Assembly: GCA_001770175.1 (NCBI GenBank) | Contig: MEQK01000164.1 | Location: 1 to 57,713 of the forward strand | Direction: 5' to 3' | DNA: 57,713 nucleotides | Source: Bdellovibrionales bacterium RIFOXYD1_FULL_55_31 | GTDB lineage: Bacteria; Bdellovibrionota; UBA1018 | Shown here: positions 16,154 through 34,349 of the stretch, in pieces | Layout of the letters: every line of letters begins with the position of its first letter | How positions within the stretch are numbered: the stretch's first letter is position 1 | Notes under the pieces: generated by a model | What the model was told of the DNA's origin: nothing | What the model saw: only the letters and a program-made list of their open reading frames with translations | The model's database searches: none | Position numbers and translations under genes: made by a program

Positions 16154-16696
16154 ATGGCGAAGCGAAGGGTGTTGTTCAAGATGAGCGGTTCGATCGCTTG
16201 TTATAAAGCGTGTCAGATCGTTTCCCGGCTCGTGCAGACCGGTTATGAGGTTCAAGTCGCCTGCACGCACGGCGCGCTCCAGTTCATCGGGGAGGCGACC
16301 TTGGAAGGCCTTACCGGGCGGCCCGTTTTTACTGACACTTACGAGCGGGCTCGCATGATGGATCATATCGAGCTTGGCCGGTGGGCTGAACTCGCGATTC
16401 TCTGTCCAGCAACGGCGCATACGCTGAACCGGTTCGCTGTGGGACTCGCTGATGACGCGGTGGGTAGCCTATTCTTGGCTTACGATCTCGCTAAGAAACC
16501 TTACCTGATCGCGCCTGCCATGAACCAAGGAATGCTTCAGCATCCCGCAACGCGTGAGGCTCTCCGTAAGCTCGCCGCCTGGGGTGTGCGCGTTATCAGT
16601 TCAGAGGAGGGTTGGCAGGCCTGCGGGGATATCGGCCCGGGGAGGTTAGCGGACCCTGACCTCATTTATCGCGAGATTGTCGAGGCGCTCAAATGA
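16154..16696 (+). CDS. coaC: Phosphopantothenoylcysteine decarboxylase (stand-alone flavoprotein)
   Basis: SGSIACYK, HIELGRWA, PATAH, PAMNQGM, ACGDIGPGRL. Confidence 0.9.
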   Translation: MAKRRVLFKMSGSIACYKACQIVSRLVQTGYEVQVACTHGALQFIGEATLEGLTGRPVFTDTYERARMMDHIELGRWAELAILCPATAHTLNRFAVGLADDAVGSLFLAYDLAKKPYLIAPAMNQGMLQHPATREALRKLAAWGVRVISSEEGWQACGDIGPGRLADPDLIYREIVEALK

Positions 16697-17397
16697 ACAT
16701 CCTTGTTACCGCCGGAGCCACTCGGGAGCCGATCGATGGAGTGCGGTTCATCAGCAATTTCAGTACAGGAAAAACCGGAGCACGGCTCTCGGACGAGTTG
16801 ATCCAGCAGGGAAACCGAATCGTTTATGTTTGTGGAGCGGATTCGGAAATCCCACACCGCAGCTGCGAAATAATGAGATTCGGGAGTTTTTTTGAGCTCG
16901 ATGTGATTTTGCGAAGCCTTCTCCAACAGAGGAGCTTTGATTGTGTGATTCATCTGGCGGCTGTCTCGGACTTCTCTGTCGAGGCAATTGAAATCGAAGG
17001 ACACCGGTTCGCGGCCGGTATTATTCGCAAGATCGACTCCGAAGGACGAGTGATTCTGCATTTAAAGCCGAATTTCAAAATAGTCGAAAGGCTGAAAAGC
17101 TACGCCGCAAGCCGGAAAATGGCCGTGATTGCTTTCAAATTGACGAATATCCCGATCGAAATCGGCGATGGCGGTGACAGTTCTTCCGGCGAGAGTCGGG
17201 AAACTTTGCAAATGAAGGCGATCACGAAGCTCTTGGGGGGCGCGAACGTGGACTACGTCGTTCATAACGATTTTGCGGATATTCAATCAGGAAGCCAGCA
17301 CTTCGGGATCTATGGACCACACCATAAAATAAGGGATTGTGATACGCCCGAGTCACTCGCAAGGGAACTTGTGAACGAGGTGAAGAAATCGGCGTGA
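16693..17397 (+). CDS. coaB: Phosphopantothenate-cysteine ligase (stand-alone)
   Basis: ILVTAGATREPIDGVRFISNFSTGKTG, HLAAVSDF, AFKL, VVHND. Confidence 0.88.
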   Translation: MNILVTAGATREPIDGVRFISNFSTGKTGARLSDELIQQGNRIVYVCGADSEIPHRSCEIMRFGSFFELDVILRSLLQQRSFDCVIHLAAVSDFSVEAIEIEGHRFAAGIIRKIDSEGRVILHLKPNFKIVERLKSYAASRKMAVIAFKLTNIPIEIGDGGDSSSGESRETLQMKAITKLLGGANVDYVVHNDFADIQSGSQHFGIYGPHHKIRDCDTPESLARELVNEVKKSA

Positions 17398-17412
17398 GCA
17401 GGTCGTGGCGGG

Positions 17413-19074
17413 TTAGAGGCTGTCCTTTTTGCTGGCCGTGATCGAGGATCGGTCGATCCACTTTACCAAATCGATATACCTTTCTTCAAACGACTGCGTG
17501 ACGTCTTTCTTTTGTTTGCCGCGGCTCAGGACTTTGCCCGTAAAAAAGAAATCGCGGATTCGCGTGATATCGAGCGTTTCGGCAAGAATCGCCTTGTGAA
17601 GTTTTTTCCCGAAAATTTGACCCAGATAGCGCGCAGCCAACATGGCGGCCGGTGCGTGCCGCGGGGAATTCATCAGTCGGGTCACTTCGCGGCGATTTCC
17701 GGTTTTCCGGAGGAGCGACAAGGTGATTTCCCGCGCGATGACTTCGGCCTTGTTCATCGGTTTTGCCCCCTCAGCGAGTGCTTTGAGGCGGCTTCGGTGG
17801 TCGGCCGGGAGGTCGCATTTGCGGCGAGGATTGAGGATCAGGCTTCCGAGAAACGCAAACGAGGCTTCCAGGACGAGCCTGAAGAAGTCATCGCGTTCGT
17901 GCTGAAAAAGAAGCTTAAAGCGGGTCTGGGTGCGCAGCAGGTGAATCGCCGCGAGCTCAGCGGTCGCGTTTTGAGAGGGGCTTGCCAAGTAGGCGATATC
18001 GGGAGGGATATAAAGTCTCTGGTTGTTCAAGACGTGAAACCGGATCAGTGCGCGCTCAGTCCGTGAGAACCGATGATCCTTGAAAAGGGTGTCGACGAAA
18101 TCGAGCTCGTCAATGGTCCGGACCGTCAGACTCTCGTATGCCTGATGCGGAGATTCGACTCCGAAAAACTCGGCCAGCGTTTTACCATAAGTGACAAGCA
18201 GCGAAAGATAATCGGTCGATTCGTCTTGCTCGATCTGGGCCGCTTCGCCTTCAAGCCAGCTAATCAGGGATTGGAGCTTCGCCCAGGGAGTACTTGCTAA
18301 AACACAGAATACGTTCCTGCGGAGTTTGATGATTTCCGTCTGGAGTTCCTTCGCTTCCCGAGCCAGGCGCCAGTACAGAATGTCGTCGTTCTGATGAATC
18401 GAAATCGAACGGACCGGTCGCCCGAGCCGGAGCTTTGAGGCGATTCTGAGTTCGTCAGGAATGTGCTTGGTCCCTACGTGAAGCTCGCCATAGAGCACGA
18501 TCATACGTCTTGATTGCCCACCTGAAAGCAAAATGCTGATCAGGGATGCCGCCCAACGATCGCGCAGCTTCAGCTCTTCCATCGTCTTGCTGAAGCCGCT
18601 GGCCAACGTGGGCGCGCGCGAACGCGCGCCGGCGCGTCCGGGGCCATTCAGGGCGACGATCTTCACGGAATTCTGGCGTGCCCATTCGAAAATCGGTGCG
18701 TAGTTCTCCCACGGAAATCCCCATTCGTCTTTGTAGCGTATGATCTGATGAAACGCTTCGAGCCCGATCTTGCCGGACTGGAAGGCATCGAGCGCACTCT
18801 GAAACCGGCTCGGAACGACCTCCAGTCCGATCAACCAATCCTCTCCTGGTTGTATCGACTCCCGTATCAGACGAAGCGCGGTTTTCTGGGCCTGGCTGAA
18901 GGTGTGAAAATCAGCGATGAACGTGACCTCCGCGTCCCGAATGCGTCGGATCAGGGCTTTCTTCGAGACCGGCTGAATAAACTTCAGTCGCGAGCCGATT
19001 CCTGAAAAATCGGTTCGAAACTCCCGCTCGTAGTTGCGGATCGCGGCAGGGGCAGGTCCGAGAAGACTTTTCAC
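17413..19074 (-). CDS. ChaN-like (TIKI/EreA/ChaN fold) domain protein with C-terminal extension
   Basis: FIADFH, IGLEVV, WGFPWENYAPIFEWAR..VALN, RDRWAA, VLYGELHV. Confidence 0.65.
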   Translation of the reverse strand: MKSLLGPAPAAIRNYEREFRTDFSGIGSRLKFIQPVSKKALIRRIRDAEVTFIADFHTFSQAQKTALRLIRESIQPGEDWLIGLEVVPSRFQSALDAFQSGKIGLEAFHQIIRYKDEWGFPWENYAPIFEWARQNSVKIVALNGPGRAGARSRAPTLASGFSKTMEELKLRDRWAASLISILLSGGQSRRMIVLYGELHVGTKHIPDELRIASKLRLGRPVRSISIHQNDDILYWRLAREAKELQTEIIKLRRNVFCVLASTPWAKLQSLISWLEGEAAQIEQDESTDYLSLLVTYGKTLAEFFGVESPHQAYESLTVRTIDELDFVDTLFKDHRFSRTERALIRFHVLNNQRLYIPPDIAYLASPSQNATAELAAIHLLRTQTRFKLLFQHERDDFFRLVLEASFAFLGSLILNPRRKCDLPADHRSRLKALAEGAKPMNKAEVIAREITLSLLRKTGNRREVTRLMNSPRHAPAAMLAARYLGQIFGKKLHKAILAETLDITRIRDFFFTGKVLSRGKQKKDVTQSFEERYIDLVKWIDRSSITASKKDSL

Positions 19075-19166
19075 CTCGAGGGCAAGAGAACGGAAAATCC
19101 TTCGCTGCAGGAACAGGAGTCGTTCATGGGCAGTGCCCCTGATTCGCTTTGCGGGTCGGCGCTGCT

Positions 19167-19922
19167 TCAGGTCAACGCCCCCGGTTCATTTGCAATTTCG
19201 TGAGTGGAGCTTGCGAACAAGAATGACCATCGGTGGGAACACCGCGGAGATCCCGTTGAATCTTCGATCGAGATCCCGTTATTCAAGGAGTAGACGAAAC
19301 CGCGAATCCATTGTGAGTGGAGCTTGCACAGCTGATCCGCGACCGGTTGGACCTCGGGAAACGAGACCTGATGGGGGCAGCGATGAAATTCGAAGACCAG
19401 TTCGCTGTCAGTCGCTCTCTTGATCAGAAATGGTTCACCATGCGGATTTCTCCCGAAAGGGGAGTCGCCCATCGCGAGAAAAAGGAGTCGAAGATCCTGC
19501 CGGGACTTCACCGGCATTCCTGACCACCGCTTTTCACCGAGGTTGCGGCCCATTTTCCAGGCCGTGAGATCAAGAACGGTATTGAGGGCATCGCGTTCCG
19601 CTTGCGGAGTACGTTCAAAAAGATTGATCAGCGTCCAAGCTTGGACTGTCCATACCGTATGTTCCAGTCTTCCGAGAACGTCATCGGGCGAAGTATCATC
19701 GAGGAGCATGTCGATCTTGGTTTCACTCAAGGAATCAAGCATCCAGAGATTCTGCGTTACATCATGATCTTGTCCACGAGTCATGAGATGGGGAAGGCGC
19801 TGGATCTGAAGCTCTTTGATCCATGCCAGGGTAAGATCATGAAAATCAGCGAGATTTCGGAACCACTGATAATGCTTCGTGGTGCTGCTGGGCAAATGCC
19901 AGGCATGTTCCTTTTTGCTCAT
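19167..19922 (-). CDS. Hypothetical protein with C-terminal V4R-like Cys/His motif
   Basis: FEFHRCPH...LCKLHSQWIRGF...RCSHRW pattern. Confidence 0.55.
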   Translation of the reverse strand: MSKKEHAWHLPSSTTKHYQWFRNLADFHDLTLAWIKELQIQRLPHLMTRGQDHDVTQNLWMLDSLSETKIDMLLDDTSPDDVLGRLEHTVWTVQAWTLINLFERTPQAERDALNTVLDLTAWKMGRNLGEKRWSGMPVKSRQDLRLLFLAMGDSPFGRNPHGEPFLIKRATDSELVFEFHRCPHQVSFPEVQPVADQLCKLHSQWIRGFVYSLNNGISIEDSTGSPRCSHRWSFLFASSTHEIANEPGALT

Positions 19923-19988
19923 ACTACGAGTTTAGCCCAACGTTGCCGGTAGGTGAATCGCGAATTCCGCGTTTACCAAGGGGGGGTA

Positions 19989-20020
19989 CGGGCCCCGCGA
20001 TCCGAAAAATGCGGGGCCCG
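19989..20020. other. GC-rich hairpin after the lipoprotein gene
   Basis: CGGGCCCCGC-N12-GCGGGGCCCG, a perfect 10 bp stem. No clear U-tract, so a terminator role is uncertain. Confidence 0.45.
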
Positions 20021-20042
20021 GAGGGAATTGGGGCGGGGGCTA

Positions 20043-20708
20043 TCAGCGCTTTCCCAAATCGTCACGAATAGAGACGTCCTGCAGTTCGTTTCCGCAGCTT
20101 GCCGGAAGCGAGTATGAGCCTGATGCGACGCCTTGGGAAAACCCACAATCCAGAATGCGTATTTTGGACTGTGTCGGATCAAATTGATTTCCGTCCCGGA
20201 GCGCGACTACCAATTCAAGCGCGAACCGGGAGGTGGTCAAAGACGGAAGGGTCACGTCTTTGGTAATAAAACTGTATTTATAACCGCCGTTGTAGCGAAA
20301 GTCCCAGAGTCCAAGACTCAGGGACGTGTTGAAGCTCATACTGGCAAGCGGGCCGCTGATTTGAACGTTCGCATACGGGTAGAGCGCCGAACCATTTTGA
20401 GACTTATAAAGCGCGATCGAAACGATCTGCGGCTGAACAGGGCCGTAGTCGGACATTTCCTGAAGCGCTTCGGTCGTCATAGTAGCCGAATACGTTCCCA
20501 TCAAGGCATCCACCGTCGAAACCAAGGATCCCGCCAGATTACTATTCGGCGCCGGCCCGTTCTGGGGCGCCGGGGTCGTTTGATGAGGCGGTACGGAATT
20601 GGTCGGGCGGGTTTCGCTCGTTTGTTGGCCACAACCGATCATGAGCATTGAAGCGGAAGCTGCTGCGAGAATCGCGATCAACAATTTTGAATCTTTTTGC
20701 ACACTCAT
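20043..20708 (-). CDS. Hypothetical lipoprotein
   Basis: Signal peptide with lipobox MIGC, Pro/Gln/Thr-rich linker, GGAG SD. Confidence 0.75.
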   Translation of the reverse strand: MSVQKDSKLLIAILAAASASMLMIGCGQQTSETRPTNSVPPHQTTPAPQNGPAPNSNLAGSLVSTVDALMGTYSATMTTEALQEMSDYGPVQPQIVSIALYKSQNGSALYPYANVQISGPLASMSFNTSLSLGLWDFRYNGGYKYSFITKDVTLPSLTTSRFALELVVALRDGNQFDPTQSKIRILDCGFSQGVASGSYSLPASCGNELQDVSIRDDLGKR

Positions 20709-20785
20709 AACCACTCCAGCCTAAGAACCTACTATTTGGAAGGCCTCTCTCATGCCGATCCGCCGATCCAATGAGGATCTATGAC

Positions 20786-20801
20786 TGCACGTGTGGTGCC
20801 A
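20786..20801 (-). promoter_or_regulatory. Putative sigma54 (-24/-12) promoter
   Basis: Minus strand reads TGGCACCACACGTGCA (GG-N10-GC), about 80 nt upstream of the lipoprotein start, with an AT-rich tract further upstream. Confidence 0.6.
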
Positions 20802-20879
20802 CGGACGCAGGGGCGTGCGAATAGAAATAATTATCCGGAATGATTGAACTCTCATGTTAGAAAATGAACGTCAGAACTG

Positions 20880-23708
20880 TCAAATAAGTGTACAGCCGGA
20901 AAGCAACTCAACCAGTTCCGCAGCTTTCTGATTTTGTTCACCGTGGGAACGAAGAATATCTGAAGCGGTTGACTCGGCAAGTTCCATTCGGCGCGGGACA
21001 CGAAGGTATTGGAGGAGTTCGCTCCAGGTTGGGTGCTGAAGGCCTTCGCATTGTTCCCAGAGAAGGTCGATGATGTTTGGCTGGTCTGAGCCGATATGAA
21101 GAGTGAAACCGAGCTCGGTTGCGAGCAGGATGCCATTGGTAGGTGATTTCACGCGTTCCATGCAGCCGATCGGAATATGGAGCGGCAGGTTTCCGGTAAT
21201 CCTGATCTCCGGATGAAGCGTGATCGCAATGGGCTCAGCTTTAGGAATGATATTCATGATTCCACGCCAGCGGACCAGGCCTTGTGCGCCGATCACGGGC
21301 TCTAGGCGTTTTTGTGCAATTCTGACCTGTTCGAGACCGCGCGCCGCCCGAACGAAAATCGCGGCGCGGATTTTTGATCCTGTTTCGTCTGATGGAAGCC
21401 GATTGAGCGCCTCTCGAACCTGTTTGGGGCGATAGGCACATTCGGATGCAAGCCTTTCCCATTCGCCGGGGAGAGGATGAGCAAACGTCGACGGGTCAGA
21501 ATTCGGCAGAACTACACCGAGCGCCTCGAACAAGGCTTTCGGAATCGGAATCCATTTCACGGTCTGTTCGTCTAGCACCCATCGGTTGTTGCGGCGTTCG
21601 GCATGATGATCGAGCCACTCGCGAATCGGCTCGGATTCGAGGAATACGCATAGCGGCGCCGTCCAAGTGTCGTCGGGAACAAGGATGAGAAATCCTTTTC
21701 CCGCCGCCAATTCGGCGTTCTCACGCGGGATGGCGCGCGCGAGCAAGCGTCTCTGCTCGCCGTCCTGGGCGCAATCCACCCAGAGCCCCTTCAGGGTGGG
21801 GTCGATGATCCAGCGGTTCTGGTTTCGCGGATCGCCTTCCGGAGTTGCGCAAACCGTCGTCGCATGCGCGAGAGGAAGGGATGCCGCGCGAAGTTTTTCG
21901 AGCGCAACGAGGGCCGTCTGAGAGGCGGGCTCAGGCCAGCGTTCTGCCCATTCCTGCTGAGAGGTCGGACTCCGAGTGAGCTGCAACTCCCATTGCCCGT
22001 GGAATTGCGCTGTCGTTCCCATTCCCGCAGTTTCGTAGCCGCCGGTCGGCTTATCCGCGAGGTCGGGACCTAACGCATCCTGCAGCAGTACCGGCAATTC
22101 CACATGGCTTCGGATCTGGCCTCGCACACTCAACTGAGTCGGCCGGTGCGCGAGCCGATCTTCGAGCTTCGCTTCGCGCGAGAATAGATAAAGATACTTC
22201 GGAAAAAGCGGGATCGAGACCGGAAGCGAGTGTTTCACTTCGCTGAAATTCCACTCACGAACGAGCTTGGCTTTCTCAAGGAGGAAGCCAAGCATTTCTT
22301 CTCCTTCTTTCACTGAAAGAGGCTCTTCGCGTGCCCACCAAAGGAACCCGCCTGGACGCAGTTTGCTCAGGGCTACACAGGCCTGAAGGGCGCCAAGGCT
22401 TGTTGAGGCGCGGCGCATCTTCTTGAAATACGGCAATGTCTCGACCTGTTCACGAAAACGCTGTGAGCTCGGAGTTCTGTTTTGCCCGCGAATGGAGACT
22501 TCTTCAAAGACGAATGCGATATCGCAGGCTTCCATCTCGGCGATTCGTGATCCGATCGAAGGCTTCGCGGAAGATAACGCGAGACTGAGCTGATCTCGCG
22601 AATGCGTTTCGAGTCCGTTGCCAACGGCCCAGAGCGGGGGAGTGGAGGGGCCCCACCACAGGAGCGCCAGTTCAGCGACGATCATTTGGAAAAGCGAAGC
22701 TTCGGTGCCGATCCAGCTCACCTCTACCGGACCGTTTCTCACGATCGCTCCATCCCTGAGCGTGGGCGAAAACGCGATTTTCGCGCGTCGCAGTCGCGAT
22801 CGATCAGGTGTCACGCCGAAGCCAAGTTCGAGGCTTGCATCCCAAAGAGCCTTGAAAAACCGCGGATCGTACCCCGACAAATGCGCATGCCGGGCACGAG
22901 CGGTCGGGGCGATTAAGCTGGTCAAAAAAGTCGGGCCTTCGTCCGTAATCCGGAAGCTTTCGAGGCGGTTCCAGATTTCCTGCTGGATCGACCCGCTCGG
23001 GATGTACCACGAATAAAGATTGCGCCGGGTGAATTGCCAGCCTTCGCGATCGAGCGGCACGTGCGGTTTGAGTGCGCTCGTCAGTGCCCAATTCAGGTCG
23101 CTCAGGTCCTGGCGGGTCCAGGTCCGGAGACCGCGATCCGACCATGCTTTCAGGAGCAGTGTTTGACCGAGAACGACTAAGGCAATTTCCTCGAAATAAG
23201 TCTGAAGTGCTGATTCCTGCGCGGAACTTCTGGCGCCCTCAATCCAGCGGCGGAGCCCGCCGGCTGCATCGGCATTGCCAGCCAAAGTACTTGGGCCGGG
23301 AGTCAGGTGTGCAAGTTGATCGAGGTACTGCGCGATCGCCTCGCGCCGGCTCACGTTCAATTCGAGTAAGCGCCGCAGATTGCCCTCGAGCTCCTGGACG
23401 ATCTGGCTTTTTAAAACGACCAGGAACGGGAGTACGGAGGAAAAGGGCGACGGCAGCTCAGCAACCGCTGAATTGGCGTGCTCTTGCGAAATCGCCAAAT
23501 CCAGAAACTGCGCCATTTGGCTTCGTGTGTCAGGTTTCGTTGCGTTTGAATTTTCGCCCTGCCCGGAAGTTTCGCAATTCGGCGATACAGCCCCTGGGGT
23601 TCCCGCGGAAGGGTCAGCCCCATTTTGCGAAGAATTCGCATCATCTTTATTGGACGGTTCTGCCGCCAAAAGCAAAGACCGGAGGTCAAAAGAGACCGGT
23701 TTGTCCAT
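20880..23708 (-). CDS. Degenerate N6-adenine DNA methyltransferase-fold protein (Eco57I/TaqI-like MTase plus TRD), catalytic motifs lost
   Basis: Collinear remnants LLLKAWSDRGL, NLYSWY, AFSPTLRDG (motif I position), WIGTEAS, GNGL, CDIAFVFEE (NPPY position), LRPGGFL, and TaqI-C-like LCVFLES...VKWIPIP. Confidence 0.6.
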   Translation of the reverse strand: MDKPVSFDLRSLLLAAEPSNKDDANSSQNGADPSAGTPGAVSPNCETSGQGENSNATKPDTRSQMAQFLDLAISQEHANSAVAELPSPFSSVLPFLVVLKSQIVQELEGNLRRLLELNVSRREAIAQYLDQLAHLTPGPSTLAGNADAAGGLRRWIEGARSSAQESALQTYFEEIALVVLGQTLLLKAWSDRGLRTWTRQDLSDLNWALTSALKPHVPLDREGWQFTRRNLYSWYIPSGSIQQEIWNRLESFRITDEGPTFLTSLIAPTARARHAHLSGYDPRFFKALWDASLELGFGVTPDRSRLRRAKIAFSPTLRDGAIVRNGPVEVSWIGTEASLFQMIVAELALLWWGPSTPPLWAVGNGLETHSRDQLSLALSSAKPSIGSRIAEMEACDIAFVFEEVSIRGQNRTPSSQRFREQVETLPYFKKMRRASTSLGALQACVALSKLRPGGFLWWAREEPLSVKEGEEMLGFLLEKAKLVREWNFSEVKHSLPVSIPLFPKYLYLFSREAKLEDRLAHRPTQLSVRGQIRSHVELPVLLQDALGPDLADKPTGGYETAGMGTTAQFHGQWELQLTRSPTSQQEWAERWPEPASQTALVALEKLRAASLPLAHATTVCATPEGDPRNQNRWIIDPTLKGLWVDCAQDGEQRRLLARAIPRENAELAAGKGFLILVPDDTWTAPLCVFLESEPIREWLDHHAERRNNRWVLDEQTVKWIPIPKALFEALGVVLPNSDPSTFAHPLPGEWERLASECAYRPKQVREALNRLPSDETGSKIRAAIFVRAARGLEQVRIAQKRLEPVIGAQGLVRWRGIMNIIPKAEPIAITLHPEIRITGNLPLHIPIGCMERVKSPTNGILLATELGFTLHIGSDQPNIIDLLWEQCEGLQHPTWSELLQYLRVPRRMELAESTASDILRSHGEQNQKAAELVELLSGCTLI

Positions 23709-23888
23709 TCACTTCCCCGAAAAACTTCCCCAAAACGCTCGTTCTCAAACCCAAAATTTTATTGAAGGACGACAGTGATACCAGCGAAGTTTTCTTTTTG
23801 GCGAGAGAAAAAAACGGCTAGCACTGGCCGTTGAATATTTGCTTGGAAAACCTCGAACATAGCCGGTCAAAATAAAGTACCGCGCGCA

Positions 23889-23917
23889 TTGACGCATCGC
23901 GACAACTTGGGTATAAG
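23889..23917 (+). promoter_or_regulatory. Putative sigma70 promoter
   Basis: TTGACG-N17-TATAAG, 7 nt before ATG 23925. Confidence 0.55.
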
Positions 23918-23924
23918 GTTTTCG

Positions 23925-24515
23925 ATGAAGGTACACTATCTTGCCATTGTGGCTCTGACGCTTTGCTTACCGGTGCCATTTCTAACATCAAGTTATGCGG
24001 TCGAACAAAGGACGGAGTTTTCGTTTCAAGACCCGGGGAACGTCATTGATGAATTCCACGCTGTATCCCCTGGAATCTACCGGGGCGCAGTTCCAGGCGT
24101 AAATGGTCTGCAAGCCCTCGCGAAATTTGGTGTAAAAACCATCATTAATCTCAAAACGAATTTCACCGGGGATGATGAACGTCGGATCGCGGAGTCATTG
24201 GGAATGCAGTATGTGGCTAAACCGATGGTTCCGTTTCTCCGTCCTCAGGATCGCGACATGGCTGAAATTCTGAGAATCCTCGCAGACGGCTCTCAACATC
24301 CAGTGTTTGTTCATTGTAGGCACGGCCAGGATCGCACGGGACTCGTGATCGGACTCTATCGGGTTTTCGTCGAAAACTGGAGCCCGGCAGCCGCGTATGA
24401 CGAAATGCTTCGATATAATTTTCATCCCGAACTTTCGGCGCTGCAAAGCTATTTTGAGGAAAAGACTGACTGGTCACCCAAAGGAGAACTGATTTATGAG
24501 CTGGTCACTTTATAA
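23925..24515 (+). CDS. Exported Cys-based (PTP/DSP family) phosphatase
   Basis: Signal peptide, IYRGAVP, TIINLK, active site HCRHGQDRTG (CX5R). Confidence 0.85.
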   Translation: MKVHYLAIVALTLCLPVPFLTSSYAVEQRTEFSFQDPGNVIDEFHAVSPGIYRGAVPGVNGLQALAKFGVKTIINLKTNFTGDDERRIAESLGMQYVAKPMVPFLRPQDRDMAEILRILADGSQHPVFVHCRHGQDRTGLVIGLYRVFVENWSPAAAYDEMLRYNFHPELSALQSYFEEKTDWSPKGELIYELVTL

Positions 24516-25065
24516 TATGCGCGTGCTCTTTTTGGGTGTTGTTCTTCTTGTCGCCACATCGTTGGCTTCAAAAATGACTTTCGCGAAAGACGTGCGTTTC
24601 ATGACTATTGTCGGGCAGGACCGCGCCGATACTGTCGAACTTGAAGAAACCGCTGTCCTGATCCGTGAAGATGCAAAGGGTGGCTTGGCGTCTATCAAGG
24701 TGGTCAGTGAAGCCAATACGGTAAACGAAACTTACACGCTCCAGCAGCTTCGATCGATGAGGGGATCTCCGATTAAGTACAAATATCGAAGTTGGCTCAT
24801 CAACATGGACGTGAACGTCCTGACGATTGATGGTCAGAATCTCACTTCGCAAGGCGGCACGCTTGTTTTGAGGTATTTTCACAACGTTACGAAACCCAGA
24901 AACGGATCAGGCGTTCTCGAGCTCGAAATCGAGCGGCACGGAAGGCAGTGGTTCGCCTCGGTAAACGATCAAGCCGGACGACGGCCTATTCAAACACTCC
25001 ACCTTGTCCTGAATACGATGATGTCCGGCGTGCCCATTGGAGTCGGCGGGGTGATCGCGGAGTAA
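24496..25065 (+). CDS. Hypothetical secreted protein
   Basis: Signal peptide and AAGGAG SD; overlaps the previous gene. Confidence 0.7.
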   Translation: MSWSLYNMRVLFLGVVLLVATSLASKMTFAKDVRFMTIVGQDRADTVELEETAVLIREDAKGGLASIKVVSEANTVNETYTLQQLRSMRGSPIKYKYRSWLINMDVNVLTIDGQNLTSQGGTLVLRYFHNVTKPRNGSGVLELEIERHGRQWFASVNDQAGRRPIQTLHLVLNTMMSGVPIGVGGVIAE

Positions 25066-25122
25066 GTCACTCACGCGGCCAGGGCTGAGTAATTATTTAT
25101 AAATTCAAGAAGTTGTTGATGT

Positions 25123-25151
25123 TTGACGCAAACGCTTCGGTCCGGTAAACT
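25123..25151 (+). promoter_or_regulatory. Putative sigma70 promoter
   Basis: TTGACG-N17-TAAACT with an AT-rich upstream element. Confidence 0.6.
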
Positions 25152-25183
25152 AAAGTAAATTGCTATCTGGAAGAAGGACGTTT

Positions 25184-25933
25184 GTGAGGCGAATCTTCGA
25201 GAACAAAACAATTATCATTGTTGATGCCGATCTCGATCTTCGCGAGATGTTGGCTTTTGAATTTCGATCCCGCGGAGCGATTACCCGCGAATTTGGCAAT
25301 GTCCAGTTGGCGATCGAAGCCGGGCTAAATAGCGTGAATGGAATAATTACCGAAGTTTACACCCCCAGGGGTTCTGGGATTGACCTCCTGGTTCAGGCTA
25401 GAAAATTCAGCCAGACGGTGCCGGTGATACTGACAAATGGTTTTTCGGATATCAGTGATGCCGAAGCGTTTCGTTTGGGAGCTTCAGCGGTTTTTTTGAA
25501 ACCTTTCGACCTGAAGGTCTTGGCTCGAGCGCTGGCGGGAATGCTTGACCCGAAATCCGGCCAAAGTGCTCGCCGTGCAGCACGATATCCGACGGACATT
25601 CCAACCGAGCTGCGCCTGATGAGAACGGCGCGAAAGGTTGCGGGGCGGATTTTTAACATCAGCCGGACAGGCGCTTTTGTTCACCTGGCAAACGAAGTGC
25701 CCGAGCAAGGTGAAATCGTCAATTTTGCTTTTCGATTCGAGAAGGGACCCGCAATTCAGGTCCGAGGAAAAGCGGTCGTTCGTTGGACGAGGGCTGATTC
25801 AGGGCAGGATCTTCCAACAGGTTGCGGAATCGAATTCCAGGACTTGACCGAAAACGCTCAAGCCGAGATGGCTCGAATACTCGAATCCTTGAATGCTGAT
25901 CACGACAAATGGGTCAGCCAGTTCAGGCCGTAG
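25184..25933 (+). CDS. Atypical receiver domain plus PilZ domain protein
   Basis: IIIVDAD...IITEVYTP...KPF receiver fold. PilZ motifs RRAARY and NISRTG; VVRW..GCGIEF. Confidence 0.85.
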   Translation: MRRIFENKTIIIVDADLDLREMLAFEFRSRGAITREFGNVQLAIEAGLNSVNGIITEVYTPRGSGIDLLVQARKFSQTVPVILTNGFSDISDAEAFRLGASAVFLKPFDLKVLARALAGMLDPKSGQSARRAARYPTDIPTELRLMRTARKVAGRIFNISRTGAFVHLANEVPEQGEIVNFAFRFEKGPAIQVRGKAVVRWTRADSGQDLPTGCGIEFQDLTENAQAEMARILESLNADHDKWVSQFRP

Positions 25934-26091
25934 GAGCTTGGGCGGTCCGAAGGTTTTCAGAACCAGACCCAAAGAAATTGCGTCTGATAAGAAATATTAT
26001 GTCAACCAGACGAGATCCTGTCGGTCTTGCATAATTGCACGCTTTCTTCGACTCAGTTCGTCTTCCTCACGCGGTTTGCTACTCTACTGCT

Positions 26092-27162
26092 ATGCACCCA
26101 GCGATTCTCTCGGTGATCATCCAACTCTCATTCGCATGGGCGGCATCCCCATTGCCTTCGCACACAGCAGTTCCTGACTTGACTAGCCCTGTTGTCGCCG
26201 CAAGCCCCAGACCGGCGCCGCAAACGACGAGGCGGCCGCTCCAGGAGGCCCTTGCTGAATCGTATGCTTGTCTCATGGCCCAGGCCGATGGAACTCCGGT
26301 CGATTCGCGGCTCCTACGGTTCTCGACCGTCATTAAGAAATTTGGAGACCTGCGAAAAGACCTCTGTGAGCCCCTGACAATGGATCGTGTCTGCAAGAAA
26401 GCCGCGGCCGAATGCCGGTTATTGGGAAATGAAACCTGTTGGGCGTTAAATCAGCGCGCGCAAAGCGCACGGATGGAGTCAGTTTCACATCGCAAACTCG
26501 TACTGGAGAATACGTTCAGTTTTTTTGATTCGACTCAAAAGAACTCCGATTTTCTGAAAACCTGCTGCGGACACAACCCTGACTGCCAATCGAAGATTCT
26601 GAAGCTCGAGCTGGTCTTTGTACAGGGGCTTCCGAAGGACCAGCAGTACGCCTATTACTTCACCACTACCGACGGCAATGGCGAATTCACAAAACATCGG
26701 ATTGAACTGTCCGAGGCCATTCTTTTGAACTCCTTAAGCGCCGCCAACATCGAACGGGTTTTATTGCATGAGCTTGGGCATGCTTGCGATATCTCGCGCC
26801 ATGCCGGGCACAAATACATGACGAAAAAATTCAAAGGCTGCGCTTCTGACGAAGAATTTCGTAATCTTGAAACTTACTTTTCAAAAGAAGTCGCCAAGTG
26901 CATCCGTGATGATCTCGCTCGACCGATGGCGGCGTTCGAAAAGGCCTCTGGCCAGCGAGTCTGTCTGGCTGATTGGCTTCACGAAGCTTTCGCCGAAGCT
27001 TTCCAGTATCAGAATGCAAAAGATATTCAGAGTTTCAGCTGGGATTGTTCGGCTACGCCGCCCGATCTGATGCATCCCCCACCCGCTGTTCCTATGAATT
27101 GTATGTTGAAGCACGATCCGAAATTACGACGAAATTTATGTGGAGAACCAGGGGCTAAATAA
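26092..27162 (+). CDS. Secreted Cys-rich putative zinc metallopeptidase
   Basis: Signal peptide, LLHELGH, downstream HEAFAE, many cysteines. Confidence 0.6.
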   Translation: MHPAILSVIIQLSFAWAASPLPSHTAVPDLTSPVVAASPRPAPQTTRRPLQEALAESYACLMAQADGTPVDSRLLRFSTVIKKFGDLRKDLCEPLTMDRVCKKAAAECRLLGNETCWALNQRAQSARMESVSHRKLVLENTFSFFDSTQKNSDFLKTCCGHNPDCQSKILKLELVFVQGLPKDQQYAYYFTTTDGNGEFTKHRIELSEAILLNSLSAANIERVLLHELGHACDISRHAGHKYMTKKFKGCASDEEFRNLETYFSKEVAKCIRDDLARPMAAFEKASGQRVCLADWLHEAFAEAFQYQNAKDIQSFSWDCSATPPDLMHPPPAVPMNCMLKHDPKLRRNLCGEPGAK

Positions 27163-27177
27163 AAATTTTCCTCTCTT

Positions 27178-27858
27178 CTAGGGGACCTGTCGGCAATGAA
27201 TCGTGAAAAGAAGGTCCCGGTAGGCTCCCACTAAATAGCTGGACCACCCCAAAGGATCGTCGGTCGTCTGATAAAGCGCCCGGCCATCGGTATAATCGCC
27301 TGAGACCCCATCATGGGCATGCCACTGAATGAAATTCGCATCAGTCTTATTGCTCGCGCCCCAGGCACCCGTCAGCCTGAGCCAATAAGTCTTGTTGAAG
27401 TCTAAGGTGACGTAACCAGTAAAATTGAAACGATAAGCACCTGGAGTGCTGATGTTGGCGGGTCTCAGATTTCCCGAGGCTGCTCCGGTCGCGGAGGTCA
27501 CAACCGTACCGTTCGGTTTTCCCGGTTCGTCGCCCTCAATAGTCAGGGTGACAGGAACGTCATCAGGGACAGTGCCTGATTTCGAAAGGACCAAAGAAAC
27601 ACCGCTTACGTCGGCGCTCGCAGGCAGCTTGAAAGATTGCGCGAGGGAACTTCCTTTGTAGTCCGTAAAAACGATTGGCATTTCCGATTTCGTCGTCTCG
27701 GTCGTAAAAGTCAAGGCGACGCACTCATTTGAGGTCTCGGCTTGACTGCCGCACCCAGAAATTATGACTCCAAAAATAACGAGATAATGCGGTATGCGAG
27801 ACCCAAGGCCTCTGACATCGGACGGCATATTGCAAGTCATTCTCGAACAATAAACCAA
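27178..27858 (-). CDS. Hypothetical lipoprotein with beta-sandwich domain
   Basis: Lipobox ISGC; LAQSF...TYWLRL pattern. Start uncertain. Confidence 0.6.
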   Translation of the reverse strand: MVYCSRMTCNMPSDVRGLGSRIPHYLVIFGVIISGCGSQAETSNECVALTFTTETTKSEMPIVFTDYKGSSLAQSFKLPASADVSGVSLVLSKSGTVPDDVPVTLTIEGDEPGKPNGTVVTSATGAASGNLRPANISTPGAYRFNFTGYVTLDFNKTYWLRLTGAWGASNKTDANFIQWHAHDGVSGDYTDGRALYQTTDDPLGWSSYLVGAYRDLLFTIHCRQVP

Positions 27859-27979
27859 AGGCTCCGATTTTGACTATTTATTTTGGGTGGGTGCTTTACA
27901 AAATGGCCGATTGCGTTGACGATGTGCCGAAAGAGACGGCTGTGATGGAGCCGTGGGTGTTAAAACCCGAAGGGGGATT

Positions 27980-28672
27980 ATGAAGTCAGGGACAAAGGCG
28001 CAGGCGGTCCGCGCCGCGTTCGTCGCATCAGTGGTGTTATCGGTTTTTGCGTTCGGCCTGAGCCATGGGGCCCGTGCGGAATTCACGCCCGTATCTTCTG
28101 ATTCGGTTGATCCGGTGCTTCTCGGGAAATTTCGAAATACAAATTACTACGTCGTCATGGAACTCGATTATCTTCACCATCCTCTGGATACCTTTGTGCG
28201 GGACATGCGCGGGCAAACCCTTGCGATCGTCAGCACGCCATTCAAACAGGCCATGGACATTGAAGGAACGGGCAAACTGATAGCGGGCGACGTCCTCAAT
28301 TATGCGGGCCGTGTGAATAAGGAAATCCGGTATAAAATAACGAAGAATGAGTTCGGCGACGGCGTCGGAACTTGCGCACTCGTTCCCTTTCACACCATTG
28401 CGGTCGACCCGAAGACGATTCCACTCGGCTCCGTGGTCCAGATCGCTGAAACCATCGGAATGGTTCTCCCGGACGGATCGATTCATGACGGGATTTGGAG
28501 AGCGGAAGACGTCGGCGGTGCGATTAAAGGCGATCGAATCGATCTTTTCATCGGCGCCCGTACTAACGCGAAAACGCTGGTCCGCGCGGGAATCACGCAT
28601 CTGAAGCCGCTGACCATTCGGCTGCTTGAGACCCCCACTGAATCCTGCGTGAGCCGAGCACCGGAGATCTGA
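27980..28672 (+). CDS. 3D-domain (MltA-like) peptidoglycan-active protein
   Basis: Signal peptide; IAVDPKTIPLGS, AEDVGGAIKGDRIDLF (three Asp). Confidence 0.88.
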   Translation: MKSGTKAQAVRAAFVASVVLSVFAFGLSHGARAEFTPVSSDSVDPVLLGKFRNTNYYVVMELDYLHHPLDTFVRDMRGQTLAIVSTPFKQAMDIEGTGKLIAGDVLNYAGRVNKEIRYKITKNEFGDGVGTCALVPFHTIAVDPKTIPLGSVVQIAETIGMVLPDGSIHDGIWRAEDVGGAIKGDRIDLFIGARTNAKTLVRAGITHLKPLTIRLLETPTESCVSRAPEI

Positions 28673-28678
28673 CCGGGC

Positions 28679-29314
28679 ATGCCAGAAGCGCTGATCAGGC
28701 GTGCCCTTCCCGAAGACTGGTCAAAAATCCGTGAGATCTGTTGTAAGACCGCGCAGGCAGGAGCCGAGATCGCGCGTGAACGCTGGCCGTTTTTTGCCGA
28801 ACTCTGGGTCGGCCCCTATCAGAGACTTTTGCCTGAGTGGTGCTATGTCGCCGAATCCCCGGACGGCGAAGTCGTTGCTTACCTGACGGGTTGCCCGGAG
28901 TCGCGAAAATTCGCGGCTGCGAGAGCGATCTTTCACAGCATCCCGCTCTTCGTAAAAATCCTCACCCGGCGATATGACTGGAACGGCGATGTTAGCCGCT
29001 TCGTCCGCCGCACTTTGCGACTCGCACGGGATCCTGAACGATCCTTTTCAAGACGAGCACGCCGGCTTGTCCAAGGAAACTATCCTGCTCACCTGCACGT
29101 GAACGCCGAAGCTTCTTACCGAGGGGCGGGCATCGGTCAAAAACTCGTCGAACGCTTTATCATCGATCTGAAGGAACGAGGTTTTTCATCCGGCACTCAC
29201 ATCATTTGCGGCTCCGGACCCGTGAAATTCTATCAAAGAACGGGCTTCGAAACCCTCGAGCGGCTCGAGTTTCTGCCCGGCGTTCCCATTTACCTCATGG
29301 GTCGCCGGGCGTAG
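28679..29314 (+). CDS. GNAT family N-acetyltransferase
   Basis: IRRALPED, YPAHLHVN, YRGAGIGQKL, FYQRTGF. Confidence 0.85.
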   Translation: MPEALIRRALPEDWSKIREICCKTAQAGAEIARERWPFFAELWVGPYQRLLPEWCYVAESPDGEVVAYLTGCPESRKFAAARAIFHSIPLFVKILTRRYDWNGDVSRFVRRTLRLARDPERSFSRRARRLVQGNYPAHLHVNAEASYRGAGIGQKLVERFIIDLKERGFSSGTHIICGSGPVKFYQRTGFETLERLEFLPGVPIYLMGRRA

Positions 29315-29343
29315 AAAAAGCGATCTTACGTTGGGAAAGCTCT

Positions 29344-29646
29344 CTAAGCAGCGCGATCATGCCGATCGATCGAACTCGTTCCTGTAACCGAGCGGGTCCT
29401 TCTGCGTCCAAAAAACGCATGATAGAGGAACAAAACGACAATGGCACCGATCGTCGCTGAAATAAAACCTGCTCCCTCGCCCGGCTGATACCAACCGAGC
29501 GCCTGCCCTAGCCAGCCGGCAAGAACAGCGCCGACGATCCCGAGAAGCGTGGTCCCGAGAAGACCGAGGGCATCACGTCCGGGCATAATCGCACGGGCGA
29601 TCAAGCCAACGACAAATCCGAAAAGGATCCATCCCAAAATACTCAT
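29344..29646 (-). CDS. GlsB/YeaQ/YmgE (transglycosylase-associated) membrane protein
   Basis: MSILGWILFGFVVGLIARAIMPG...LGIVGA...ATIGAIVVL; AGGAGA SD. Confidence 0.9.
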   Translation of the reverse strand: MSILGWILFGFVVGLIARAIMPGRDALGLLGTTLLGIVGAVLAGWLGQALGWYQPGEGAGFISATIGAIVVLFLYHAFFGRRRTRSVTGTSSIDRHDRAA

Positions 29647-29699
29647 AAATAGTCTCCTATCGAGCGGAGGCGGTGCAATGGACGGGCCGATTTGAACTT

Positions 29700-30626
29700 T
29701 CAAAATAGCCGGCAGCGCCGGCTCAGAAACTGTGTTGTGAGTTGTTCGGCTGTTTGAGTAAGAGCGGCGAGGGTTCTTCCTGAAAATGCTTCGAGTCTCT
29801 TTCGTGAGTTTTCGCACGCGACTTGATTTAAATCGTCATACTCATCCAGAAGGGCGATCGGGTATGGAGCGTTGCCGGTCGAAGAAAACAGTTTAGGAGT
29901 GCTGGCCGATAGACTGGGAAATAGTGCTGTTTCCTTGCCGAGCCTGCGTGTAAGTTCGTGATGCCACTTACCGACACGATAGAAGTCACGGCGGATTTTC
30001 TGTTTTTCGATCACGCGTTGCTGTCCATTGGCTTTGTTGGCGAGGTATGTCCAGCAACGCTGTTGTGAACTGCCCAGAACGGAGGCGAGCTCCATGCTGA
30101 CACTGCATTCTGCCGCCACAGCTTCGATTTCCCCCCCCTCACCTTCAATGGCCGCCCAGACGTAGCGTCCCGGGGTCAGGCCAGGATCGTAAGGGTCCCA
30201 AGCCGGACGTGCTGTCGCGTGGATCAGTTCGTGAGCGAGATCCAGAATCGTATCATTCAACGACTGTCCGGGCCGCAGATAAACGATCACCTCACGTCGG
30301 CGACTTTCCTGTCCTGTTTTTGGATCAAGCTGCCGGGTCAGAACTGCATCGGTCCTCGATGTTTCGCCCCAGCGGAGAAACTCGATGAGTTTTTCCGCCA
30401 GCTCCGGGCTATCCGTTTTTAGAGGCGGGGAACTCGGAGCACTGAAGTTCCATGCTTGTTGAGCCCGCTTCAGTAACGCTCTTCCGGACGGAACCGTTTG
30501 CAGGTACCCGATGGCTTTTCGGAGCACAGTTTTATCGGCTGAGTCTGGCCGATCACCCGAGGCAATCTGGGGCAACGAGTAGAGCGGAAGCAGAATCAGA
30601 ATGAAGGCGAGCAGGAGCCGAGCCAT
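29700..30626 (-). CDS. Secreted HEXXH protein, putative metallopeptidase
   Basis: Signal peptide; LAHELIHA and a later GEIEA. Confidence 0.6.
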   Translation of the reverse strand: MARLLLAFILILLPLYSLPQIASGDRPDSADKTVLRKAIGYLQTVPSGRALLKRAQQAWNFSAPSSPPLKTDSPELAEKLIEFLRWGETSRTDAVLTRQLDPKTGQESRRREVIVYLRPGQSLNDTILDLAHELIHATARPAWDPYDPGLTPGRYVWAAIEGEGGEIEAVAAECSVSMELASVLGSSQQRCWTYLANKANGQQRVIEKQKIRRDFYRVGKWHHELTRRLGKETALFPSLSASTPKLFSSTGNAPYPIALLDEYDDLNQVACENSRKRLEAFSGRTLAALTQTAEQLTTQFLSRRCRLF

Positions 30627-30856
30627 AACTTTTTATCGGTTTTTGGCTCAAATAGTTTACCTAAATACTTTGGTCGGTCACCTGTCTAAACCTTCGACAT
30701 ATTTCGTCATAAAGGGCGAAACTGGAGCAAGAGACGCTCGGCACAACATGTTGTAATAATGTGCAATTTTAATGTGCTATCACGCTTCGAGCGGGCACAG
30801 CGCTTGCTTAGAACGGCCGCGAGCAGACGTCCCCCAGGCTTGTTTCGGGGGATTAA

Positions 30857-31996: not shown

Positions 31997-32073
31997 GACC
32001 GGGTAGGTTTGGCTTTGTGCGAATCTGCGTGAGAGCTACTGACACGACGCCGCTTCCAGTCTAAGATACCAGC

Positions 32074-33804: not shown

Positions 33805-34349
33805 ACCTTTAACTCATGGTTTGCCAGTCGGGCGCACACAAAAAGGTAATCGCTGAGACGATTGGCATATTCGAGAACTTCCGGGCGCAACGGCGGCTCA
33901 CCAGGCACGTGATGAAGGGCGACGAGTTCACGTTCCGCTCGTCGGGCGACCGTTCGCGCGAGGTGAAAAAGAGCGGCTATCCGGGTCCCTCCGGGAATGA
34001 TGAAGTCGGAAATGGTCGAGAGCCACTGCTCCATCCTGTCGATCTCGCTTTCAAGCCGGAGAATAAATTTTCGCTCGATTCTCTCCAGCAGCTGTTCGCG
34101 TCCTCCATTCGAAGTCGCGAGTTCCGCTCCCAAGACCAAAAGTTCTCCTTGTATTCGAATTAACCGTTCCCGAAGATCGCGCAGCCGTTCCGTTGCAAGA
34201 TAGCCCTCTTCTGCAAGGGCGAGTCCCAGAACCGCGTTTAGTTCGTCGAAATCGCCGTAAGCACGGACTCGCGGACTGTCTTTGGCCACTCTGAAGCCGC
34301 CAATCAGGCCGGTCTCGCCCTGATCACCTTTTCGCGTATAGATCTTCAA
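33750..34349 (-). CDS. pduO: PduO-type ATP:cob(I)alamin adenosyltransferase
   Basis: KIYTRKGDQGET, AYGDFDELN, FIIPGG, RTVARRAER, NRLSDYLF; TTG start. Confidence 0.9.
   Translation of the reverse strand: MKIYTRKGDQGETGLIGGFRVAKDSPRVRAYGDFDELNAVLGLALAEEGYLATERLRDLRERLIRIQGELLVLGAELATSNGGREQLLERIERKFILRLESEIDRMEQWLSTISDFIIPGGTRIAALFHLARTVARRAERELVALHHVPGEPPLRPEVLEYANRLSDYLFVCARLANHELKVQDLLWLKRRDLPEPADL

Follow-up and report, generated by a model that had tools for sequence, protein, structure and literature searches.

A pseudoenzyme derived from a restriction-modification methyltransferase is fixed as a core gene across a class of Bdellovibrionota

The 57,713-nucleotide stretch analyzed here (the window, whose numbering we use throughout) is a contig of Bdellovibrionales bacterium RIFOXYD1_FULL_55_31. 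It carries a gene for a protein of 942 amino acids, labelled P0001, which is a pseudoenzyme derived from a restriction-modification methyltransferase and fixed lineage-wide as a core gene, with intermediates extant in related lineages. P0001 goes back to an Eco57I-type methyltransferase that had a recognition domain; the fold has been kept, and both the cofactor loop and the catalytic tetrapeptide are gone. Its family is a vertically inherited, single-copy core gene of the class, under strong purifying selection. Most likely, P0001 neither binds S-adenosylmethionine (SAM) nor methylates, and since its motifs are lost and yet the single-copy gene is strictly conserved, the family has been recruited to a new job.

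Restriction-modification methyltransferases are usually mobile, patchily distributed and fast evolving, and the loss of their motifs normally precedes loss of the gene. Here, one of them has become a near-universal, constrained core gene after losing both signature motifs, and the living intermediates in related lineages form a series in nature along which the repurposing of an enzyme fold can be studied. The result flags a core protein of ~940 amino acids in Bdellovibrionota that is mostly labelled hypothetical, and it implies that annotation pipelines and methylome studies would miscount the proteins of one subfamily (form b, below) as active methylases. One relative locus, 40% identical to P0001, carries the title of a Bacteriovorax stolpii metagenome-assembled genome, so that an orthologue is probably present in cultivable Bacteriovorax; if this is true, the function of the family is open to genetic testing. 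A full-text literature search, judged by titles and the openings of abstracts, turned up no study of the pseudo-methyltransferase family.

Homology to Eco57I-type enzymes

With P0001 as a single query, NCBIfam (E ≤ 10), PADLOC and PDB sequences (phmmer) gave zero matches, and a 31-sequence family profile found no match among PDB sequences either (hmmsearch). The sole Pfam row for P0001, NTP_transf_6 at an E value of 0.35, was dismissed as noise, and a six-frame search of the genome with PF02384 matched another gene, not P0001. A word-indexed protein search returned 194 matches at E ≤ 1e-3; among the 120 matches listed, nearly all are full length (735 to 1040 amino acids), one is 95% identical to P0001 and the rest 44 to 56%, none holds a Pfam domain, and those that are named are “hypothetical” proteins of Bdellovibrionota, Oligoflexia and Bdellovibrio metagenome-assembled genomes. 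When 1.84 billion representatives were searched exhaustively with phmmer, there were 157 matches, including a tail of 900- to 1000-amino-acid proteins at 26 to 32% identity. From this tail comes P0267, which matches Pfam Eco57I (6.5e-14; 52.8 bits against a cutoff of 25.3) as well as MmeI_Mtase (6e-6), and another relative, P0252, has a subthreshold match to TaqI_C.

For profile comparisons we used the family profile (A1), a profile of 14 distant forms (A2) and an alignment of seven canonical enzymes with the catalytic motif NPPY (A3). In hhalign, A1 aligned end to end with P0267 alone (probability 98.6%, E 9e-16, 774 columns), and the comparison of A1 with A2 reached an E value of 1e-49. A search with P0267 in turn reaches ordinary Eco57I/TaqI_C enzymes of 675 to 1232 amino acids that carry NPPY. 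As an independent lead in the same direction, an ESM Atlas feature search with a score of 0.93 placed all ten best hits in Eco57I/N6_Mtase clusters. Longer fused forms, sought among proteins of 1650 to 4710 amino acids, were not found, which is weak evidence.

The AlphaFold2 model of P0001, built on the 31-sequence alignment (predicted local distance difference test [pLDDT] 77.8, predicted template modeling score [pTM] 0.65), is disordered only at residues 1 to 87, 140 to 149 and 554 to 566. It shows a methyltransferase fold of the Rossmann type, flanked by a helical domain on the N-terminal side and a recognition domain on the C-terminal side (Foldseek E values of 1e-10 to 1e-6; VIA-align Z scores of 15 to 20). 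Foldseek returned 89 PDB matches at E ≤ 1e-3, and among those listed nearly all are N6-adenine methyltransferases: the best is a type I methyltransferase (7eew, 1.2e-10), and further ones include M.BseCI, the type IIG enzyme BpuSI, the type ISP enzymes LlaBIII and LlaGI, the type IIL enzyme DrdV, M.TaqI, CamA, BrxX/PglX and PacII. In VIA-align, the Z scores against HsdM, M.BseCI, CamA, M.TaqI, DrdV and LlaGI range from 15.4 to 19.8, with the aligned parts of P0001 differing by partner: residues 257 to 942 for CamA (Z 19.6), 88 to 605 for HsdM (Z 18.7), 271 to 942 for M.BseCI (Z 18.4), 84 to 594 for DrdV (Z 17.3; root mean square deviation [rmsd] 4.3 over 382 residues) and 277 to 733 for M.TaqI (Z 16.0). 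HsdM subunits and DrdV thus superpose on residues ~85 to 605 (rmsd 3.9 to 5.3), and the alignments of CamA, M.BseCI and LlaGI extend to residues 941 to 942.

From these results we delimit five regions (Table 1). The helical domain holds the motifs LLLKAWSDRG and W.F.R.N.YSWY, the latter being the best-conserved motif across the four subfamilies described below, and the C-terminal domain is common to the other three subfamilies (b, c and d) and to three of the seven canonical outgroup enzymes. No nuclease or helicase domain was detected, either in the model, in which the C-terminal ~200 residues were viewed as part of the whole, or in the structural matches, which start at about residue 84; the matches to type IIG, IIL and ISP enzymes span only their methyltransferase-recognition part. 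An earlier reading of this DNA from the letters alone (the sequence-only reading) had described an intact frame, an Eco57I/type IIG-like origin with a TaqI_C-like recognition domain, and no nuclease domain; the frame is indeed unbroken from its ATG, and the link through P0267, the structural matches and the alignment bear out the origin, with the predicted model showing the methyltransferase and target recognition fold that this reading implies.

Motif replacement and conservation of the pocket

We aligned family representatives with MAFFT to the distant forms, the seven canonical NPPY enzymes and the canonical Eco57I-like gene of the same genome. The places of motifs X, I, II, III and IV emerged as the sequence-only reading had assigned them (Table 1), as did its LRPGG segment (KLRPGG lies opposite the canonical L(R/K)EGG) and its TaqI_C-like block. 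The block that follows motif IV, PYFKK...LSKLRPGGFLWWAREE, aligns with the canonical PYW...LSKL(R/K)EGG.LGFIT, and the end of the recognition domain, LESEPIREWL...KWIPIP, aligns with LLNSxL..W...IPI. After motif I, about 25 residues are absent relative to the canonical enzymes, and helix αA of the model comprises residues 321 to 324 only.

Motif counts were taken over 121 proteins (P0001 to P0121), none of which retains either the SAM-binding or the catalytic motif at the aligned position. At motif IV, (N/D/S)PP(Y/F/W) occurs in 0 of 121, its replacement across the family being (L/F)-E-E-x; SPPF is found in two proteins, inside a WWGPxxPPFW block away from motif IV, and the sole DPxxG[ST]G lies at residue 632 of P0110, in the recognition-like region. 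What has taken the place of the motifs is essentially invariant: D281, F313, R318, G320, G363, E402 and E403 are present in all 121 proteins, R283, T316 and L317 in 119 each, and H369, C395 and R407 in 115 each. The acidic residue of motif II, E336 at the end of strand β2, is kept as glutamate in 117 proteins and as aspartate in the other four. Conservation in the 31-sequence alignment peaks in the methyltransferase-like domain, at a majority frequency of 0.69, compared with 0.57 for the recognition-like domain and 0.23 for the N-terminal tail. That the substituted pocket residues belong to the most conserved part points to a binding or catalytic site put to new use, and not to an inert shell. 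The term “dead” scaffold, under which the protein had first been described, therefore holds for the lost motifs, but “scaffold” undersells a protein whose substituted pocket is its best-kept part.

Selection and distribution

Between P0001 and its 95%-identical orthologue, whose genome belongs to the same genus, the ratio of nonsynonymous to synonymous substitution rates (dN/dS; Nei-Gojobori, 932 codons) is 0.060 overall (dN 0.019, dS 0.31). By region, it rises from 0.026 in the helical domain through 0.033 in the methyltransferase-like core, 0.054 in the recognition-like domain and 0.082 in the C-terminal domain to 0.20 in the tail. The source genome contains one copy of the gene.

For the distribution we sampled 401 genomes of the phylum, with families labelled f1 to f26, of which f1 to f14 form the class of the source genome. 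The A1 profile matched 108 genomes, covering 56 of the 57 genomes of the source family and every sampled family of its order. The A2 profile matched 118 genomes, including 99 of the 101 genomes of the class; the two class genomes without a match are 75% and 96% complete. Outside the class, A2 matched genomes of f19 (8/9), f20 (1/1), f24 (1/1) and f26 (3/3), with weak matches (E 3e-7 to 6e-6) in f22 (4/100) and f25 (1/27), and no match in the sampled genomes of f15, f16, f18, f21 and f23. Matching genomes carry one full-length locus each. P0001 is thus a pseudo-methyltransferase that combines a retained fold and lost cofactor and catalytic motifs with purifying selection. The proposal of the sequence-only reading that the gene is exapted and not decaying agrees with this picture: none of the 121 proteins has NPPY at motif IV, selection is not relaxed, and the gene is present as a single copy in nearly every sampled genome of the class.

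Subfamilies and stepwise loss of the motifs

An alignment of the distant loci distinguishes four forms. The P0001 form has FSPTLRDG and CDxAFVxEE, and form c, found in f6 and f7 of the same order, has F(I/L)PxLExG and FDLxxVxDH(I/P)D. Form d, from f13 and f14 of the same class, has the motif IV region deleted. Form b, from f19 and f20 (genomes of 1.2 to 2.2 Mb), keeps an intact FDPTMGSGNF loop as well as GCDID, but where NPPY would stand it has (C/G)CPPE; at the f26 locus, L054, a degenerate variant of form b is found. Common to all four are LNxSRR, LLK.W, W.F.+.N.YSWY, PYW/F and LSKL+.GG.

In a FastTree phylogeny, midpoint rooted and accompanied by warnings of long branches and composition bias, form b stands beside the NPPY outgroup and form d is grouped with form c plus the P0001 family. 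The position of form b fits a history in which motif IV was lost first and motif I later. The sister lineages are therefore suggestive of intermediates, namely an intact motif I with CPPE and then the loss of both, as judged from their sequences.

Form b proteins (loci L051, L052, L053 and L061; proteins P0267 and P0270 to P0285) pass the Pfam Eco57I/N6_Mtase models, and some are named “N-6 DNA methylase [Bdellovibrionota bacterium]” at NCBI; database names of family members are otherwise “hypothetical.” Given their motif IV, the name may be misleading as to activity or substrate.

Interpretation and alternatives

We give a probability of about 0.5 to the reading that P0001 is a domesticated pseudo-methyltransferase that acts by binding through its remodelled pocket, likely on nucleic acid; action by binding is suggested by the fact that the replacement residues of the pocket are the most constrained. 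An ancestor of the lineage would have fixed, as a vertically inherited chromosomal gene, an Eco57I-type gamma-class N6-adenine DNA methyltransferase in which a Rossmann core was preceded by an N-terminal helical domain and followed by a TaqI_C-type recognition domain and a C-terminal domain. NPPY would then have changed to CPPE with the SAM loop retained, as in form b, before the SAM loop was lost as well, as in forms c and d and the P0001 form. In P0001 itself, the glycine-rich loop would have become FSPTLRDG, helix αA would have been nearly deleted, and NPPY would have given way to (L/F)EEx. The former cofactor and base-flipping pocket, so remodelled, may hold a new ligand, a nucleotide or a segment of a partner, with the helical and recognition-like domains seating the protein on nucleic acid, DNA being the ancestral substrate. 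It is tempting to speculate further that early capture and stepwise conversion turned the pocket of carboxylates, arginines and histidine into a new active or ligand-sensing site on nucleic acid, serving a new housekeeping function of this predatory lineage, a more specific scenario that we regard as tentative and, on balance, rather unlikely. A gene that is inherited vertically, belongs to the core genome and lies in a housekeeping locus sits uneasily with a decoy or defence role.

Several observations weigh against the reading as a domesticated, binding pseudo-methyltransferase, or against parts of it. The Pfam models Eco57I (PF07669) and N6_Mtase (PF02384) do not match P0001 directly, so that its sequence link to methyltransferases is transitive, via P0267. 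The direct profile match of the family to canonical enzymes is only modest (A1 against A3: E 2.5e-5, probability 75%, covering the region after motif IV), and hhalign found no similarity of A1 to the canonical Eco57I-like enzyme of the same genome (probability 0.2%), which also means that P0001 is not a recent paralogue of that enzyme. The order of the losses can be no firmer than suggestive, given the rooting, long branches and composition bias of the tree. The recognition-like region has a net charge of −7 in P0001 and a median of +1 in the family (interquartile range −1 to +3), compared with +4 to +15 for the same aligned region in all seven canonical outgroup enzymes, and this near-zero charge weakens the DNA-binding part of the reading in particular. 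The retained acid of motif II makes it possible that the pocket takes some nucleoside-type ligand, or SAM in an unusual pose. Finally, the invariant acidic and basic cluster, as seen in the alignment, would suit a new catalytic site equally well.

This last point leads to an unlikely but substantive alternative, in which a new catalytic site, e.g., a metal-dependent one, has arisen from what was the SAM and adenine pocket and acts on a nucleotide or a flipped base through D281, R283, R318, E336, E367, H369, E391, E393, D396, E402, E403 and R407. Such a pocket, rich in carboxylates and with one histidine and several arginines, has its substituted positions invariant or nearly so across the 121 sequences, to a greater degree than elsewhere in the protein, and residues kept merely for scaffolding usually drift; but a tight site for a ligand or partner would be just as invariant, and the Pfam, NCBIfam, PADLOC and PDB searches revealed no similarity to a known hydrolase, transferase or metal site. 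We consider it similarly doubtful that P0001 is a noncatalytic subunit working only in a complex, by analogy to METTL14 with METTL3, where the candidate partners would be an active methyltransferase, RsmD, the protein of 173 to 219 amino acids encoded upstream, P0268 or the ChaN-like protein (see below). A gene order that has survived class-level divergence, in as many as 44 of the 64 loci, would suit such a complex, as would the one canonical N6_Mtase gene elsewhere in the genome. However, the window lacks the rsmD block and its gene is unchanged, the canonical enzyme lies on another contig and may be frameshifted, and the ChaN-like gene occurs in 261 of 401 phylum genomes, including lineages without the pseudo-methyltransferase, and with this query in 0 of 17 genomes of f3, a family that has it.

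It is very improbable that P0001 has remained a SAM-dependent methyltransferase whose motifs are unorthodox and whose substrate is unusual or not DNA. Its Rossmann core, the motif II acid and a G-x-G-L motif III are kept, and the sister form b has a perfect FDPTMGSGNF loop; against this, the loop of P0001 is without GxG and carries the bulky L317 and R318, helix αA is down to four residues, and motif IV offers Asn/Asp/Ser-Pro-Pro or an aromatic residue in 0 of 121 proteins. The remaining alternative, a decaying restriction-modification remnant whose frame is open by chance, would account for the lost canonical motifs and the missing partner gene, but it is refuted by the dN/dS of 0.06, by more than 120 full-length homologues at 44 to 56% identity and by the near-universal presence of a single copy in the class.

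Comparison with known systems

The solved structures used for comparison were M.BseCI (7qw5-8), CamA (7lt5), M.TaqI (2adm), BpuSI (3s1s), DrdV (7lvv), LlaGI (5ffj) and BrxX/PglX (9ewz and 8c45). P0001 derives from, and probably resembles in its workings, the module of methyltransferase plus recognition domain that occurs in type IIG, IIL and ISP enzymes, in BREX PglX and in solitary enzymes such as M.BseCI, CamA and M.TaqI. With Eco57I/MmeI-type modules P0001 shares the domain order (helical, Rossmann, recognition, C-terminal), the motif order X-I-II-III-IV and the TaqI_C-type end block. It differs from them in the replaced motifs X, I and IV and the shortened helix αA, in a recognition-like domain that is conserved instead of hypervariable and lacks positive charge, in that no nuclease, helicase or BREX partner was found, and in being a single-copy core gene instead of a patchy, mobile one. 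Measured against an active gamma-class N6-adenine methyltransferase, it has the fold and the acid of motif II but lacks motifs I and IV and is missed by the curated model. No fused nuclease or helicase like those of type IIG, IIL and ISP enzymes (BpuSI, MmeI, DrdV, LlaGI) was detected, and P0001 does not share their patchy, horizontally mobile distribution or their hypervariable recognition (99/101 genomes; majority frequency 0.57). As for BREX PglX/BrxX, P0001 has no PADLOC match and its neighbors, judged by Pfam only, are housekeeping genes.

HsdM subunits (2okc, 3ufb, 3lkd and EcoR124I 7bto) superpose on the helical domain and core (residues ~85 to 605, Z 16 to 19, rmsd 3.9 to 5.3), but HsdM itself contains no recognition domain and works with HsdS and HsdR, neither of which was seen near the P0001 gene; HsdM also retains motifs I and IV. 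Form b (P0267, P0273) is closer in kind: it is a full-length homologue (E 9e-16) at the same chromosomal position, divergent from rsmD-coaD-aminotransferase, and has the N.YSWY, PYW and LSKLR.GG motifs in common with P0001, while it differs in keeping FDPTMGSGNF and GCDID, in passing Pfam Eco57I and in having (C/G)CPPE at motif IV. A more distant analogy is offered by the eukaryotic pseudo-methyltransferases METTL14, ciliate MTA9 and DNMT3L, which are obligate partners of active paralogues. Like P0001, they have a methyltransferase fold under selection after motif loss, with a presumed binding function, but their methyltransferase classes are different ones, and for P0001 no linked active paralogue came to light.

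Feature coordinates and genomic neighborhood

Table 1. Positions in the window of the P0001 gene, its regions and motifs, and selected neighbors
Feature	Position	Strand	Basis or remark
Whole gene, pseudo-methyltransferase P0001, 942 amino acids, stop codon included	20880..23708	-	ATG start, no internal stop; single locus in genome
Residues 1-87, disordered, poorly conserved N-terminal tail	23448..23708	-	pLDDT <50; mean majority frequency 0.23, 0 invariant positions
Residues 88-275, N-terminal helical domain, HsdM_N-like	22884..23447	-	VIA-align matches to HsdM/DrdV begin at residues 84-93
Residues 276-520, Rossmann-type methyltransferase-like core	22149..22883	-	Model, Foldseek, VIA-align; 31/245 positions invariant
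Residues 521-740, target-recognition-like domain ending in TaqI_C-type block LESEPIREWL...KWIPIP	21489..22148	-	M.TaqI VIA-align match, alignment, P0252
Residues 741-942, conserved C-terminal domain	20883..21488	-	CamA, M.BseCI and LlaGI alignments; region lengths
Place of motif X, GYDPRF (canonical GxYYTP)	22857..22874	-	Alignment
Place of motif I, FSPTLRDG (canonical DPAxGSG)	22749..22772	-	F313, R318, G320 in 121/121
Place of motif II, WIGTE (canonical GVD(I/L))	22701..22715	-	Acidic residue kept, E336
Place of motif III, GNGLETH (GNGL; canonical GNSL)	22602..22622	-	Alignment
Place of motif IV, CDIAFVFEE (canonical FDxVxxNPPY)	22500..22526	-	E402, E403 in 121/121
P0269, 223 amino acids, no Pfam family	20043..20714	-	
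P0268, 251 amino acids, syntenic downstream, no Pfam family	19167..19922	-	tblastn: 35/49 related loci
P0293, 553 amino acids, ChaN/Tiki superfamily, syntenic downstream	17413..19074	-	Pfam PF04187, 4e-21
CoaB (DFP)	16693..17397	+	
CoaC (Flavoprotein)	16154..16696	+	

A Pfam scan of 17 neighboring open reading frames (ORFs) in the window identified housekeeping genes (MobA-like, ThiF/MoeB, separate CoaC and CoaB, ChaN-like, a dual-specificity phosphatase, a PilZ response regulator and a subtilase) and no restriction or defence partner among them, in line with the sequence-only reading, which had noted no restriction-modification partner nearby. Clustering the ORFs of 64 related loci defined a conserved block around the gene, in which the counts are lower bounds because many loci are short contigs. 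Upstream and divergent lie a gene of 173 to 219 amino acids without a Pfam family (42 loci), rsmD (44), coaD (42), an aminotransferase gene (42), two unknowns and a PhoH-PIN gene (21). The downstream genes that share the strand of the pseudo-methyltransferase gene are P0268-like (31) and ChaN-like (32); beyond them, genes for a sigma-54 response regulator (27) and a histidine kinase (23) run on the opposite strand. Form b loci, too, have the rsmD-coaD-aminotransferase side, which favors orthology of this locus throughout the phylum. The window and its closest relatives are without the upstream block, with none of rsmD, coaD and the aminotransferase gene within the 57.7 kb. The unassigned upstream gene (e.g., L003:7249-7770, minus strand), which sits directly beside the pseudo-methyltransferase gene in those 42 loci and is likewise absent from the window, is a candidate partner.

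The ChaN-like gene is present at 28 of 49 related loci, and at 6 of 15 distant loci; of the 10 fetched loci of forms c and d, 6 have it downstream, and it is absent from all five form b loci examined. A phylogenetic-profile link between it and the pseudo-methyltransferase was rejected, since their distributions differ, and this mismatch makes adjacency weak evidence of a functional link. The model of P0268 (pLDDT 88) has a helical and β-sheet domain, for which Foldseek gave weak matches to Bet3/TRAPP (1.3e-3) and H-NOX haem sensors (7e-3), a lead that falls short of an assignment. P0268 adjoins the gene of the ChaN “haem-binding” family and in relatives is near the sigma-54 response regulator and histidine kinase; judging from the model, this neighborhood may be a ligand- or haem-sensing module. 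P0269, between the pseudo-methyltransferase and P0268, has a hydrophobic N terminus followed by a cysteine, as in a lipoprotein, and since only 10 of the 49 related loci have it, it represents a lineage-specific insertion into a conserved gene order. A promoter and terminator scan of positions 17300 to 24100 gave chance-level counts (2 against 2.3 expected and 9 against 8.5 expected).

CoaC and CoaB are encoded by two ORFs with a 4-base overlap and not by a fused coaBC. On another contig of the same genome (L066, G000 contig C72:15276-18992) lies an Eco57I/MmeI-like gene, the only canonical N6_Mtase gene of the genome, whose motifs are intact (GVFYTPP, ILDPACGSGAF, FGVDL, FGNSI, FDVVIGNPPY and LNSPLMWW). 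It is split into two overlapping ORFs on the plus strand (81-1406 and 1165-3402; 441 and 745 amino acids), reflecting a frameshift or an assembly error. Across the window, the cumulative GC skew climbs to ~24 to 32 kb and then drops, with the G+C content dipping to 0.50 to 0.52 at 24 to 28 kb, and this turn, at ~24000 to 34000, may be a switch point of strand bias.

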